Below are positions 22,678-26,804 of a DNA stretch of 64,000 nt, one piece after another. The notes beneath the pieces are model-generated. The model ran no database searches. It had not been told where the DNA came from and saw only the letters and a program-made list of their open reading frames with translations. Positions within the stretch are counted from its first letter, which is position 1, and each line of letters opens with the position of its first letter. A program made the position numbers and the translations under genes. Origin of the DNA: Planctomycetota bacterium (GTDB taxonomy: Bacteria > Planctomycetota > Phycisphaerae > Phycisphaerales > UBA5793); the NCBI GenBank assembly GCA_963205185.1, contig CAUJHZ010000018.1, positions 27,665-91,664 of the forward strand, written 5' to 3'.

Positions 22678-23406
22678 TCAGAGACTTTGGCTTGCGCTCG
22701 CCAACTGCCTTCCGTACGCATCGGCGGCGACTCGAACCCACTCCTCGCGAACCCGCACGATCCACAGGATAGCGAGCACGGTGCCCAGACCCGCGGCGCA
22801 TGCTGCCGTCATACTGACCGGCTGTTCACGAATGACCTGAAGGGCGAGCCGGGCAACGCCGACGATGAGCCCCAGCACCGCCAGAAGGAGCCCCGCTGGC
22901 TTCATGGCCCAGAGGTTGCGGCGGTAACCGTAGTTGACGTTCTCCTCGAACACCAGCCTGAACTTCTCGCGGTCCCGTGTTCGGCTCAACAGGAGTTGGT
23001 TAGCGGATTCGTACACCGCATGCGCCCGGTCCAGATTCTCTGCCTCTTCGTCCACGGATACTGGAAAGTCGAGCTCGGGGTCGAGTTCTCGAAGCTTGCG
23101 GTGGAAACGTGCCACCGTCTTGGCGTCAAATACCCCAGCCGAGTACATCAGAGCGCGGACTGAAGGCTTTCCGCCCCACCTCCGGAACAATTCGGGCTCC
23201 TTGGCTTTGCCTTGATCGCGGGCCAGTTGGCCCAAGAGCGCCGCAAGCGCAGTACCAGCCGCGGCGCTCCCTGCAAGCCCCGGCGCATCCACACTGACTG
23301 GCAACCAACTGGCCGCTCCAATCGCCGCAGGCATGAGCACGAGAAGCACGGGATAGAACCGCGCCCGACGCTCATATTGATCCAGGAGATTGACTACAGC
23401 AGGCAT
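22678..23406 (-). CDS. membrane protein (2+2 predicted TM helices), last gene of the E2-E1-JAB operon
   Basis: 'FYPVLLVLMPAAIGAASWL', 'LAGSAAAGTALAALLGQL', 'AGLLLAVLGLIVGVARLAL', 'AACAAGLGTVLAILWIV'; start overlaps the upstream stop by 13 nt. Confidence 0.6.
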   Translation of the reverse strand: MPAVVNLLDQYERRARFYPVLLVLMPAAIGAASWLPVSVDAPGLAGSAAAGTALAALLGQLARDQGKAKEPELFRRWGGKPSVRALMYSAGVFDAKTVARFHRKLRELDPELDFPVSVDEEAENLDRAHAVYESANQLLLSRTRDREKFRLVFEENVNYGYRRNLWAMKPAGLLLAVLGLIVGVARLALQVIREQPVSMTAACAAGLGTVLAILWIVRVREEWVRVAADAYGRQLASASQSL

Positions 23407-25655
23407 ATCGGCTCCGGCAGTTCTTCCTCCAAGCTGCCCGCGAAAACACGGGCGTCGGATTCGCCGACGATGAGCATGACGGGCGGTCGGCCATCAGACA
23501 CAGCAAGTCCCTCGATCCAGCGGAAAACCGTCCGATCATCATCGCTGGGTGCCATCGGATTCCCTGGTGGATGAGAATGCCACTCGCCGAGATAGTCGAG
23601 GTTTCCAGCCGTGGCTTCGACGATCTGCTCCCTCGCCCGTTGAAGCCCCCGCACACCGCGGATGTACATGGTTGGCCACTCTTCACTGTCCGGAGGCGAC
23701 GGAAGCGCCAGAACAATATGCAGGCAGCGCCGGTCGTGGTCCATGCCGCCGAGCAGAATCCCGCCTGTCTCGTTCGGAAGTCGATCCTGCCGCCAGGCCA
23801 CCACATTGTCCAGCAGCTTTCGGCTGACACGAATGCGCCAGCCAGACTGGACCTGCCTAACGAAATTATGCACATCCAACTTCAAAGCGCTCACGCCCAG
23901 CGTGTCGGGATCGGTGCGCCACACACGAGCGCTCGCCAATTCACGGTGAGCAGCCTGCTCGACAGCGCCGGCCGCGATACCCGCGTGAATCGCAACAGAG
24001 GCCTGACTCATGGACACGGACAGATCCCGGCAACTGGCGCCGTACCGGGCGCGACGTCCCGCGGGCGCCAGATGTCCTTGAAGATCCTCCCGAGTGGCCG
24101 CTTCGCCGTAGTACATCATCTCGAGGTCGTCCAGTCTGATGGAACGCCCTTTGTCCTCGGCGAGGAGCACGAGGTCTCGACCGTTTGGTGACAAGAAGAC
24201 TGAAACCGCGCGGGCCGCGTTCTCTAGGTCGGCTATTGCCCGGGCAACAGGCAGCGAAGCCGACATGTCCAGCACAAGATCGGCCTCGCCCAGAACAGCG
24301 TCAAGCCGAGCGCGTTGGTCACCGGGCCTCAGGAAGTTGGCCGGAATCCCCTCCGCGATCGGCTCGTCATCGGCGATCGAGTTCATGTAGAGGGCGACGC
24401 ACTCCGCTTTGTTCCGACCTAACGGGAATCCGCCCTCCAGCGCATGCCGCACGGCGTTATGCGGGAGGAAGGAATCATCGTCCACCAGCGACCAGCGTCC
24501 AAAGCCGGACCGTGCGAGATTCATGGCCACCTGCGAACCGAGTGAACCCGCGCCCACAGCCACGATCTTCCGCGGATCAATGCGTCGCCGCCCGCTGTAT
24601 TGGGAGGCCCGTTCCCACGTCAATTTGCGCAGGACATTCATGACGGCGACGTTGACCGCCGAACCATTGAATCGCGATTGGTCGCCAAGGAGTCGCCCCA
24701 GCATTTTGCCTTCGACCGCCCATGCGCCGATGCCGACCCCGACGGCCTCAAGATCGTGCAGGCACAGGAAACCCTTGAGTTCCGTCCACTCGACTCTGCC
24801 GCCAGGCTCGCGGGTCTTGGGAAGTGCCAGCACGAAGATCGGCTTAACCAGCCGCCGAAGATCGACATCGCCGACGAGTTGTTCCGGCAGCGCACGCACG
24901 GCCTCGCGAAGTGCCGGCATTAGCCTGAACTCGGCGTCGTCCACAAGCGCCGCCAATTCGTGGATAGTTCTGGGCGCGCGGTTGATGACCCCGTGTGTCG
25001 TCGGAGGCGTTTCAATGTGGATCACCGCAGAGGGCAAACCCCCGCGGCACACGTTGTCGAGACTGTCGCCCACAAGAACCCGCCCGTGCTCGCCGCCCAC
25101 CAGCATCACGCGGACGAACTCTGTCTTCGGGCCGGCATTCAGGCCGAATCGCGACGAGACCACGAGGTCGTACCCGTGTGAGAACATTAGCGGCTCAAGC
25201 GGCTGATCCTCGTCGTGAAGCTCGCCGCGAGCTGTCTGTTCGAGCCACCAGCGCACCCGGTTCAAGAACGATTCCCCCGTCCAGCTTGACCGGACTTCGT
25301 CCCACGACCGGTCGTACAGGCACAGGCTGCGCGGCCTAACCTCATCGCGCAGGTTGAGATGCGGTACGACCGGGAAGTCATCGCGAAGTGCCAGCGCCTC
25401 TGGGCCGGAATCATCCGCATGAGTGAAACGAGCGGCGATCCGCTCAACACGATGAACGTCATTCACCGGGCGCTGAGGCCGTTCCACCTCAATGTCGAAG
25501 ATGACGACCTCGACATCGCCGTTCGTACGGCACTCGACTAATTGCGCTTGTGACCCGGCCCGCACCACGGCCCGCATACAAGCGACAGCGCGGGGCAGAC
25601 CGAGCCCCTCGGGGTCGACCACTAGGCCCTTGATTGGTGTATACGCGGCTGCCAC
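23394..25655 (-). CDS. fused E2(UBC)-like / E1 (ThiF) / JAB (JAMM) protein
   Basis: E2-like 'VPHLNLRDEVRPRSLCLYD'; E1 'IVAVGAGSLGSQVAMNLARSGFGRWSLVDDDSFLPHNAVRH'; JAMM 'NETGGILLG' and 'GEWHSHPPGNPMAPSDDD'. GTG start 3 nt after the MBL stop. Confidence 0.8.
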   Translation of the reverse strand: MAAAYTPIKGLVVDPEGLGLPRAVACMRAVVRAGSQAQLVECRTNGDVEVVIFDIEVERPQRPVNDVHRVERIAARFTHADDSGPEALALRDDFPVVPHLNLRDEVRPRSLCLYDRSWDEVRSSWTGESFLNRVRWWLEQTARGELHDEDQPLEPLMFSHGYDLVVSSRFGLNAGPKTEFVRVMLVGGEHGRVLVGDSLDNVCRGGLPSAVIHIETPPTTHGVINRAPRTIHELAALVDDAEFRLMPALREAVRALPEQLVGDVDLRRLVKPIFVLALPKTREPGGRVEWTELKGFLCLHDLEAVGVGIGAWAVEGKMLGRLLGDQSRFNGSAVNVAVMNVLRKLTWERASQYSGRRRIDPRKIVAVGAGSLGSQVAMNLARSGFGRWSLVDDDSFLPHNAVRHALEGGFPLGRNKAECVALYMNSIADDEPIAEGIPANFLRPGDQRARLDAVLGEADLVLDMSASLPVARAIADLENAARAVSVFLSPNGRDLVLLAEDKGRSIRLDDLEMMYYGEAATREDLQGHLAPAGRRARYGASCRDLSVSMSQASVAIHAGIAAGAVEQAAHRELASARVWRTDPDTLGVSALKLDVHNFVRQVQSGWRIRVSRKLLDNVVAWRQDRLPNETGGILLGGMDHDRRCLHIVLALPSPPDSEEWPTMYIRGVRGLQRAREQIVEATAGNLDYLGEWHSHPPGNPMAPSDDDRTVFRWIEGLAVSDGRPPVMLIVGESDARVFAGSLEEELPEPICLL

Positions 25656-25658
25656 GGC

Positions 25659-26804
25659 TCAACCAGCCCGCGGGGCCGTTGATGTCGTTGCGACGAAGGC
25701 CGCAGCGCGCCGGACTTTCTTGACCGTTGTGCCGCAGCCATCGATCTGGATAACGAGCGGCGCCGGTTCATCGGTGTCTGGATGCTCCATCGTGACCTTG
25801 AAGTCGTCATCACAGGTCACGACATCCTCGCGGTAGTAGTTGGCGGCCTGGCGGTGCGGAGGATTCGCCCCCTTATCATCCCCGTTGCTGGCCTCCGGGA
25901 TTGGGTCGCTCGTCGAGACAACCACACAGTCATCCTGTCCGTAGTGCTCGAATAGCCGGGCGACCATCGGCTCCGGCTCCGACTTGTCGCCCTCACGCGG
26001 CTTGGCGCTCAGCGAGTGGTGACTGCAATGGTGCGGCAATTTGAAGATGTCCCATTCCAAACGCTCCTCGCGGCCTTTCGCCTCGGTGACTCGCACGATA
26101 TCGGTCAGTTCGCCGTGCGTGACGTCCGACGCCAATATCAGCTTAGTCAAGGCGCCGTCAGAGGTGAAAGTCGCCTGCATCACGATCGCATCGCAGTTCC
26201 GATCTTCGACAGTGTGTTCGTCCTGCCGAACGGCGAATGGGGAGTGGACAAAGAACTCCACCGAATCGTCTTCGAGCGTGAACTCAGGGACGAGTTGTCC
26301 TGCGTCGGTGATCAGGTGGCGGCGCTTCTCGATATCGACACCGTTGGCCTCGCACCAGTCTTCCAGGCGCCCCGGGCAAGAGAAGACGCGGACGCCATCG
26401 CCCACCTTGAACCGTTCCCGTGCCTCCTTCTGAATGGCCTTGGCCTCCGCGTCGTCCGAGGTGCCGAGCTTCTCGGTGATAACGGCCGCGGGCACCCAAA
26501 GCACTCTCATCTCAACCCGCTTCTGGCCTGCCACTTCGCCTTGGTAGGCCGCGATATGCTCGAAGTAGAAAAAGTCGGTCGCTCCCGCGTAGTGATCGCG
26601 GTCGAGATGCGAGAAGGCGACAACGTCGTAGTAGTCGCGGTCTCCCAAGTCCTCGCGCAACTTCTGGGGCAAATCGCATCGCAGGTCGGACGCGTCGTCC
26701 GGATCCCGCATGTCGGCGTAGTCAAAGAGGATTTTCCGTCCGTTTTCGAGGTTGATCCGTGTGCAGTCGGCGTTGGCGAGGTTGTGGAAGGTCACCGTGT
26801 GCAT
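25659..26804 (-). CDS. metallo-beta-lactamase-fold protein
   Basis: 'VAFSHLDRDHYAG' (HxHxDH-type variant), 'FFVHSP', 'LILASD', 'KLPHHCSHH'. ATG at 26804 preceded by GGAG. C-terminus '...TSTAPRAG'. Confidence 0.75.
   Translation of the reverse strand: MHTVTFHNLANADCTRINLENGRKILFDYADMRDPDDASDLRCDLPQKLREDLGDRDYYDVVAFSHLDRDHYAGATDFFYFEHIAAYQGEVAGQKRVEMRVLWVPAAVITEKLGTSDDAEAKAIQKEARERFKVGDGVRVFSCPGRLEDWCEANGVDIEKRRHLITDAGQLVPEFTLEDDSVEFFVHSPFAVRQDEHTVEDRNCDAIVMQATFTSDGALTKLILASDVTHGELTDIVRVTEAKGREERLEWDIFKLPHHCSHHSLSAKPREGDKSEPEPMVARLFEHYGQDDCVVVSTSDPIPEASNGDDKGANPPHRQAANYYREDVVTCDDDFKVTMEHPDTDEPAPLVIQIDGCGTTVKKVRRAAAFVATTSTAPRAG

Follow-up and report, generated by a model that had tools for sequence, protein, structure and literature searches.

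The described systems closest to the locus considered here are the 6A-MBL system, type II CBASS (anti-phage signalling based on cyclic oligonucleotides) and Bil/Bub (operon types 6d/6e). The label '6A' goes back to row 6a of Table 1 in Iyer, Burroughs & Aravind (2006), where operons joining E2, E1 and JAB modules to a metallo-β-lactamase (MBL)-fold gene were described as 'usually two genes'. According to later papers, 6A-MBL was named and validated as an anti-phage system in Pseudomonas aeruginosa (van den Berg et al., 2024), and papers citing that study count it among the known jumbo-phage defences of this species. As one of the few anti-jumbo-phage systems, it has a mechanism of practical interest for phage biology. 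Here, we analyse an operon of this kind in a 64,000-nt stretch of DNA (the window) from a Planctomycetota bacterium (GenBank assembly GCA_963205185.1, contig CAUJHZ010000018.1, positions 27,665 to 91,664). It consists of three minus-strand genes, confirmed by a listing of open reading frames (ORFs), whose products are an MBL-fold protein, a fusion of E2, E1 and JAB modules, and a protein with a 2+2 layout of transmembrane (TM) helices (Table 1). The best explanation overall, which we consider rather likely, is that this is a three-gene version of 6A-MBL, probably under CapH/CapP-type transcriptional control, the third gene being possibly the sole novel part of the operon.

Membership of the 6A-MBL family

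The identity of the operon rests on its two large proteins, which were compared with curated equivalog models that NCBIfam provides for these two components only. The MBL matches NF058524 ('anti-phage 6A-MBL system MBL-fold protein') with an E value of 1.5e-109 and 366 bits (cut-off 220), over positions 1-344 of the 346 in the model, and the fusion protein matches NF058523 ('anti-phage 6A-MBL system cap2_3 protein') with an E value of 1e-195 and 652 bits (cut-off 320). Since both proteins exceed the equivalog cut-offs by far and the operon type matches row 6a, the operon is almost certainly a member of the named 6A-MBL anti-phage system. It shares with that system its gene order, its tight coupling and a sporadic, mobile-element-associated distribution (102 plasmids carry 6A-MBL, including those of the original 6a examples Gluconobacter oxydans, Polaromonas and Clostridium perfringens); no phage genome with the MBL was found. 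This kind of operon is thus already known, as a named defence family and not as an unknown system. It departs from the description of 6A-MBL in two respects, (i) the system was described with two genes, whereas this operon and about half of the sampled relatives add a conserved 2+2-TM gene, and (ii) the host is a Phycisphaerae-like planctomycete and not a proteobacterium.

A sequence-only reading of the window had suggested that some of the E2/E1/JAB operons noted in surveys by Iyer, Burroughs and Aravind include MBL genes, and row 6a is that entry. Its three domain assignments stand as well: the MBL is supported by NF058524 and an AlphaFold2 (AF2) model, the E2, E1 and JAB modules by the Pfam families Prok-E2_A, ThiF and Prok-JAB (the MBL has no Pfam match, its profile support coming from NCBIfam), and the 2+2 TM layout by hydrophobic peaks and AF2. 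Its statement that no experimental function is known has to be given up, given a named anti-phage 6A-MBL system with NCBIfam equivalogs and a P. aeruginosa defence activity cited in later papers. NF058523 and NF058524 place the operon in 6A-MBL; neither a Ubl (ubiquitin-like protein) nor a cyclase partner was found. PADLOC v2.0.0 (2023) recognises components only, the fusion protein matching its CBASS E1-E2 and JAB models (E values down to 7.7e-31), and its scan of the operon returned no system call, no 6A-MBL match and no match for the TM family.

The tight coupling that had been read from the sequence is present in the ORF map: the MBL stop and the start of the co-oriented E2-E1-JAB gene are separated by a 3-nt gap, the start of the TM gene overlaps the E2-E1-JAB stop by 13 nt, and the map of the operon leaves no space for an additional gene. 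The longest ORF of the MBL (25659..26891, minus strand, 410 aa) begins further upstream, and this start was dropped, since homologue lengths (376-383 aa), homologue N-termini (MHK.TF) and a GGAGAA ribosome-binding site 7 nt upstream all point to 26804. For comparison with relatives, one genome per species was scanned with the MBL alignment, which gave 291 matching genomes, the best 80 of which were kept (loci L006-L085); the closest of these best 80 are Phycisphaerae metagenome-assembled genomes. E2-E1-JAB and MBL genes are adjacent and co-oriented in all 68 related loci with a complete E2-E1-JAB gene.

Table 1. Positions of the operon, its protein domains and the neighbouring features in the window (position 1 is the first letter of the window).
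Feature	Position	Strand	Details
Vsr endonuclease	15960-16511	-	
717-aa protein	16422-18575	+	N-terminal HATPase_c_3; weak match to Shedu SduA C-terminal nuclease domain
C5 cytosine methyltransferase	18568-19560	-	
Large serine recombinase	20138-21697	-	
DUF2924 protein	21694-22191	-	
Third gene, 2+2-TM protein	22678..23406	-	242 aa
E2-E1-JAB triple-module gene (Cap2-Cap3 fusion, 'cap2_3')	23394..25655	-	753 aa, GTG start
JAB/JAMM isopeptidase domain	23460..23822	-	residues 612-732; Pfam Prok-JAB 1.5e-14
E1 adenylation (ThiF) domain	24228..24626	-	residues 344-476; Pfam ThiF 4.5e-13
E2 (UBC-like) domain	25146..25514	-	residues 48-170; Pfam Prok-E2_A 5e-29; catalytic H99, C112
6A-MBL enzyme gene	25659..26804	-	381-aa MBL-fold metallo-hydrolase
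MBL disordered C-terminal tail	25662..25718	-	residues 363-381, ends PRAG-COOH; presumed adenylation/conjugation site
Divergent intergenic region between MBL and HTH genes	26805..26995	.	191 nt; read from sequence
CapH-like XRE-family helix-turn-helix (HTH) repressor gene	26996..27403	+	135 aa; HTH_3 6.1e-18; PADLOC capH 1.8e-12
CapP-like putative Zn-metallopeptidase gene	27400..28446	+	348 aa; 4-nt overlap with HTH gene
HepT-like RNase and MNT nucleotidyltransferase toxin-antitoxin pair	28378-29113	-	just past CapP-like gene

The MBL enzyme, its C-terminal tail and the E2-E1-JAB fusion

The fusion protein carries its domains in the order Prok-E2_A, ThiF and Prok-JAB in one chain, and none of the catalytic residues that define an E2, an E1 or a JAMM isopeptidase is missing from it. 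In the E2 domain, C112 is present in 68 of 68 homologues and H99 is conserved in at least 95%. At least 95% conservation is likewise seen for the E1 residues G368-x-G370-x-x-G373-S374, D392, D394, R403, K416 and D463, and a further E1 cysteine downstream of the ThiF domain, C542 (about 24030-24032), is again found in 68 of 68. The JAMM residues E629, H693-S-H695, S704 and D707 are conserved across the 68 sequences. The nearest solved structures are those of CBASS Cap2 (7TSQ, 7TO3) for the E1 domain and the peptidase 9ILD for the JAB domain, which also has a weak match to the NCBIfam Cap3 model (7.6e-11).

The MBL fold is established by the NF058524 score together with an AF2 model that matches MBL structures. 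This model, built with 40 homologues (predicted local distance difference test, pLDDT, 83.4; predicted template modelling score, pTM, 0.86), consists of a single MBL domain followed by a disordered tail, and Foldseek relates it to the MBL domain of ComEC (E 6.6e-13), to Pce, to INTS11/CPSF73 and to NAPE-PLD. The 'SHLDRDH' picked out in the sequence-only reading corresponds to a variant metal motif, HLDxDH (H66, D68, D70, H71), that is invariant throughout the family (alignment A1), as are H187, D227 and H258-H259-C260-S261. The MBL thus retains a metal-binding, phosphodiesterase-type active site. As for its substrate, it is most likely, at lower confidence, a nuclease-type phosphodiesterase that would attack phage or host nucleic acid. 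A defence MBL that is an autoinhibited DNase, activated post-translationally, provides a precedent, the ComEC domain matched by the fold is a DNase, and weak PADLOC matches link the protein to the DRT-associated MBL (RTasMBL) and to LmuA. Like other defence MBL modules (trypsin-MBL/HamMAB, LmuA-MBL, the Avs1 MBL, the DRT-associated MBL and the PADLOC candidate PDC-M48B), it is an MBL-fold hydrolase in a defence setting. Unlike it, these modules have a canonical HxHxDH motif, are activated by proteolysis or by partner ATPases, and have neither a PRAG tail nor an E2-E1-JAB partner.

It is this tail that would account for an operon with ubiquitin-type enzymes and no ubiquitin. The last 19 residues of the MBL (363-381) have pLDDT values below 50, and their final four, P378, R379, A380 and G381, are invariant in alignment A1. 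Among 117 full-length homologues, 108 end in glycine and 102 in AG (PRAG), and the motif is found in loci of the TM type and of the patatin type (see below) alike. In a genome-wide sample of the MBL, about 30% have 1-7 extra residues beyond PRAG, which suggests, by analogy with pro-ubiquitin, that such residues could be pro-peptides trimmed by the JAB domain. The MBLs of L007, L040, L041, L059 and L084 are examples of such C-termini, some MBLs ending in a tandem version of the motif (PRAGYTRAG, PRAGSRAG, PRAGLRAG or PRAGRRSPRAG) and others in 1-7 residues unrelated to it. By its sequence, and by analogy with the cyclase of type II CBASS, the MBL is quite probably the conjugated moiety, acting as its own modifier, in keeping with a text from the Corbett laboratory in which 'Type II CBASS/Pycsar/MBL' stand together as pathways whose own enzyme is conjugated. 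The tail thus gives a sequence-level reason for a ubiquitin-like system that lacks ubiquitin, and its predicted conjugation is testable by point mutants.

A separate modifier was also sought. Clustering of 1,458 small ORFs, taken from 69 loci and their surroundings, brought out no conserved ORF of Ubl type, the only cluster recurring in more than five of these loci being an HTH regulator, and a hidden Ubl ORF was therefore rejected. A beta-grasp domain inside the MBL was rejected too, since the best hint, a phmmer match to a ubiquitin variant, was not significant (E 0.41) and AF2 predicts a single MBL domain followed by the disordered tail. The operon had been called 'Ubl-less', and in the sense that there is no Ubl gene it is; the puzzle implied by the word goes away, since the MBL carries its own ubiquitin-like tail and no separate Ubl would be required.

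The other half of that statement, that there is no CD-NTase (the cyclase of CBASS), also stands, as none was detected among the operon proteins or their neighbours between 14.4 and 31.6 kb (Pfam, PADLOC and NCBIfam models). With neither a cyclase nor a Ubl, the operon is neither type II CBASS nor Bil/Bub, as had been proposed. It nevertheless resembles type II CBASS, with an E1 closest to Cap2 structures, a JAB domain matching the NCBIfam Cap3 model and 9ILD, and a conjugated moiety that would here too be the C-terminus of a partner enzyme and not a Ubl. It differs from type II CBASS in having (i) an MBL-fold hydrolase in place of the CD-NTase, (ii) E2, E1 and JAB in one chain, with an E2 of the Prok-E2_A type, and (iii) no known cyclic-nucleotide signal. 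With Bil/Bub it has in common the use of E1, E2 and JAB-family chemistry in anti-phage defence, whereas those operons conjugate a discrete beta-grasp Ubl to targets and encode E1 and E2 as separate proteins.

The third gene and what it may do

The third protein has hydrophobic peaks at residues 20-38, 44-62, 171-192 and 199-217, and this 2+2 TM layout is supported by an AF2 model with a pLDDT of 94.1. Between the two TM pairs lies a conserved helical domain (residues about 62-163, alignment A2), marked by the motifs RDxGKxKEP, WGGKPS and FEENVNYGFRRNLW, which is basic (20 lysines or arginines) and cytoplasmic by the positive-inside rule. E155, N156, R163 and N164 are invariant in the family, which has no invariant or near-invariant lysine. 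A profile search of 1.8 billion representatives recovered 3,377 clusters of this family, 1,533 of them at E <= 1e-30 (a word-indexed search found 74 clusters only). Its members match no Pfam, NCBIfam or PADLOC model, and the PDB holds no structural relative (best Foldseek E 0.5); the literature searched yielded no account of this third gene. A SLATT/DUF4231 identity was considered and rejected, as a single DUF4231 match (E 0.0087, below the gathering score) was obtained for one of 37 family members. A large, unannotated family with a confidently predicted but unprecedented fold, found beside an MBL in all sampled cases, merits a family model of its own.

The third position of the operon was surveyed in the 68 loci where the E2-E1-JAB gene is complete and the flanking sequence long enough. 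Of these, 36 carry a TM-family gene, directly downstream in 28 (usually with overlapping stop and start codons), spaced in 6 and upstream of the MBL gene in 2. Another 20 loci have instead a patatin-like phospholipase (PF01734), five have other 4-TM proteins of about 220 aa, and a TM-family gene and a patatin occur together in none of the 68. When loci are placed on a neighbour-joining tree built from the E2-E1-JAB core, at least 14 switches between types of third gene are seen. The original 6a examples are no different, since G. oxydans pGOX1 has a patatin and C. perfringens pCP8533etx a member of the TM family (E 4.2e-46), located just upstream of an MBL with 28% identity to that of the window. 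The third gene is a recurrent, interchangeable partner that behaves as swappable effector modules do. In L087 (8517-10024, Polaromonas pPNAP01) and in L046 (10482-11135), the third-gene position is taken by another 4-TM family (about 220-230 aa, with the motif LVFWR...LPG.RAF), the Polaromonas gene coming after a second, PDC-M48B-like MBL.

These counts bear on the idea that the third gene neighbours the pair by chance, or serves defence on its own, and that the functional system is the two-gene pair. That idea could draw on the 'usually two genes' of Iyer et al., on NCBIfam models that cover two components only, on the loci that have no third gene and on L033, L050 and L063, where the TM gene follows a second MBL gene and could belong to an independent MBL2-TM module (in L050, the second MBL, between E2-E1-JAB and TM gene, is PDC-M48B/LmuA-like). 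It has to contend with a TM-family gene or a patatin in 56 of 68 loci from many phyla, where stop and start codons mostly overlap, with the 13-nt overlap seen in the window, and with a linkage that survives rearrangement, whether the gene lies upstream (Clostridium, L048, L075) or on the opposite strand (L004, L090). We therefore regard a mere neighbour as very improbable.

For the TM protein we favour, tentatively, the role of a membrane effector equivalent to the patatin phospholipase of sister operons, since the two are mutually exclusive. A possible course of events would be as follows. After DNA damage, the HTH repressor and the HExxH peptidase encoded next to the operon (see below) would raise its expression. 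The E1 domain would adenylate the terminal Gly381 of the MBL, which would pass as a thioester via C542 of the E1 and then C112 of the E2 and be ligated to an acceptor, a step that might prime or localise it. The JAB domain would reverse the ligation and, in relatives with residues beyond PRAG, trim the pro-tail. The activated MBL would act as a phosphodiesterase, most likely a nuclease, on phage or host nucleic acid, and the TM protein, like the patatin elsewhere, would damage the membrane and lead to abortive infection. Whether the MBL is the killer or an enzyme acting upstream is a question on which a swappable, membrane-targeting third gene in most 6A-MBL operons has a direct bearing.

An alternative emerges from the genomic context of the TM family, which was sampled for ten members (nine homologues and that of the window). 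All ten adjoin an MBL-fold gene, of the 6A type in L001, L003, L004/5, L090 and L092, and of a canonical Lactamase_B type with no E2-E1-JAB in L002, L089 and L093. These last loci hold two-gene modules (L002 1803-3896, L089 367-2151, L093 4926-6717) in which a Lactamase_B MBL of about 350-440 aa with no PRAG tail precedes the TM-family gene; that of L093 has a divergent pair of HTH and Peptidase_M78 genes. The canonical partner matches PADLOC PDC-M48B (strongly) as well as the LmuA and Avs1 MBL modules. Such MBL-TM modules, in which the sensing of infection must fall to one of the partners, may be a minimal defence system of their own, so far undescribed. L091 (351-6738) is a split-gene relative, in which the genes for two E2-CBASS proteins, ThiF on its own, a JAB protein of 591 aa, a Lactamase_B MBL, a protein of 256 aa and a member of the TM family all run in one direction.

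Since every sampled TM-family gene lies beside an MBL-fold gene, with or without E2-E1-JAB, a direct MBL-TM partnership is suggested, and this keeps alive the idea that the TM protein serves the MBL as a sensor in the membrane, as an anchor or as a platform for conjugation. It would either perceive an infection at the envelope or bring the MBL nuclease to the membrane at the point where phage DNA enters, and the MBL would be left as sole effector. The basic cytoplasmic domain with its invariant E155, N156, R163 and N164 resembles a binding or catalytic site more than it does a simple pore. Jumbo phages shield their own DNA soon after entry, and action at the membrane would make sense for a system listed as anti-jumbo-phage. 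Against this, strict exclusivity with the patatin, a lipid-degrading effector, argues for equivalence as effectors, the lack of an invariant or near-invariant lysine weakens the idea of a lysine conjugation target, and about 10% of loci do without any third gene. On balance, we find a sensor or anchor quite unlikely.

A second alternative takes the parallel with CBASS literally, the MBL being a signal-generating enzyme whose product activates the TM protein or the patatin, with the two-gene MBL and TM module as a type-I-like minimal form. Primed by E2-E1-JAB, the MBL would release a small molecule, which might be a nucleotide-derived product of phosphodiester cleavage. The architecture invites it, with an enzyme, Cap2/Cap3 functions and a swappable accessory gene (a patatin, as CapV, or a TM protein) that, as in CBASS, can lie on either side of the enzyme gene, and so do the MBL-TM modules that occur with no E2-E1-JAB and the term 'signaling enzymes', applied to conjugated proteins in the Corbett-laboratory text. 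The patatins of these loci, however, fail to match the PADLOC CBASS phospholipase models (a further difference from type II CBASS), no nucleotide-binding domain can be recognised in the TM protein, defence MBLs related to this one (LmuA, Avs1, DRT-associated, trypsin-MBL) act as effector nucleases, and a third gene is absent from some loci. To our knowledge, there is no demonstrated case of an MBL-fold enzyme making an immune second messenger. A signalling MBL therefore seems unlikely to us.

The favoured combination of a conjugated nuclease and a membrane effector faces difficulties of its own, and the following points weigh against it: (i) about 7 of the 68 loci have no evident third gene, and the pair may thus suffice for defence; (ii) searches with models and structures found no recognisable pore, channel or enzymatic homologue of the TM protein; (iii) TM-family genes pair with canonical MBLs lacking E2-E1-JAB, which a sensor or activator role fits equally well; (iv) fold matches of the MBL include lipid and teichoic-acid phosphodiesterases besides nucleases; (v) the conjugation of the MBL is argued from sequence and analogy; (vi) a PDB search returned no solved structure of any 6A-MBL component; and (vii) the CapP-like protein has no significant Pfam, PADLOC or PDB match, whether searched as a single sequence or as a profile. 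Taken more broadly, it is conceivable, though somewhat less likely than not, that 6A-MBL is a three-component CBASS-like system whose third, membrane-targeting module is either a patatin or a 2+2-TM protein, the TM family being a dedicated partner of MBL-fold enzymes that also occurs in a minimal MBL-TM module. The MBL-TM partnership would then amount to a new defence principle, with either a membrane effector gated by a hydrolase-made signal or a nuclease directed to incoming phage DNA by a sensor or anchor in the membrane.

Putative divergent regulator genes and the surrounding island

Upstream of the MBL gene, and divergent from it, lie genes for a CapH-like repressor and a CapP-like protein. 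The former, for which a start codon and a ribosome-binding site were identified in the sequence, has counterparts upstream of the MBL in 13 of 69 loci. The latter belongs to a family of 130 clusters, one of them with the UniRef label 'IrrE N-terminal-like', in which HEIAH (H137, E138, H141) and E164 are invariant (alignment A3), and it is on these grounds a predicted peptidase. Homologous pairs of HTH and peptidase-type genes stand upstream of 6A-MBL in L030, L036 and L077, and other relatives have as regulators BrxR, a LexA-like protein or a pair of HTH and Peptidase_M78 genes. Type II CBASS has CapH/CapP-type regulators, which this pair resembles, and Lau et al. (2022) noted, in association with CapH/CapP, a '6a' operon that encodes a metallohydrolase, an E2/E1/JAB protein and two hypothetical proteins. 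The divergent pair thus probably regulates the operon. Candidate operator sites for the CapH-like repressor lie in the intergenic region, where TTCGCGAA (26939-26946) forms a perfect palindrome and ATTCGCTA occurs as a direct repeat (26890-26897 and 26909-26916). A sigma-70-like promoter was matched once, on the minus strand at 26928..26901, and scans for promoters and terminators did no better than chance.

The setting had been described as a defence and mobile island, which is borne out by the Vsr, C5 methyltransferase, serine recombinase and HepT/MNT genes found around the operon. GC content falls to 0.57-0.63 at about 15000-45000 of the window, from 0.65-0.67 at 1-13 kb and 46-50 kb on either side, which is consistent with a horizontally acquired island; neither a tRNA gene nor a tRNA integration site was found in the window. 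Immediately downstream of the TM gene, a 190-aa ORF that belongs to no family lies alongside the recombinase and DUF2924 genes (19597-22191). In L090, too, the 6A-MBL pair has a serine recombinase next to it, which suggests that the system travels on a recombinase-borne element. Further along, the Vsr and C5 methyltransferase genes flank that of the 717-aa protein, which may be a methylation-linked defence gene. On the other side of the operon, two large proteins encoded on the minus strand at 30133-34349, one of 494 aa with a DUF3466 match and one of 916 aa with repeats visible by eye, are probably cell-surface proteins unrelated to the operon.

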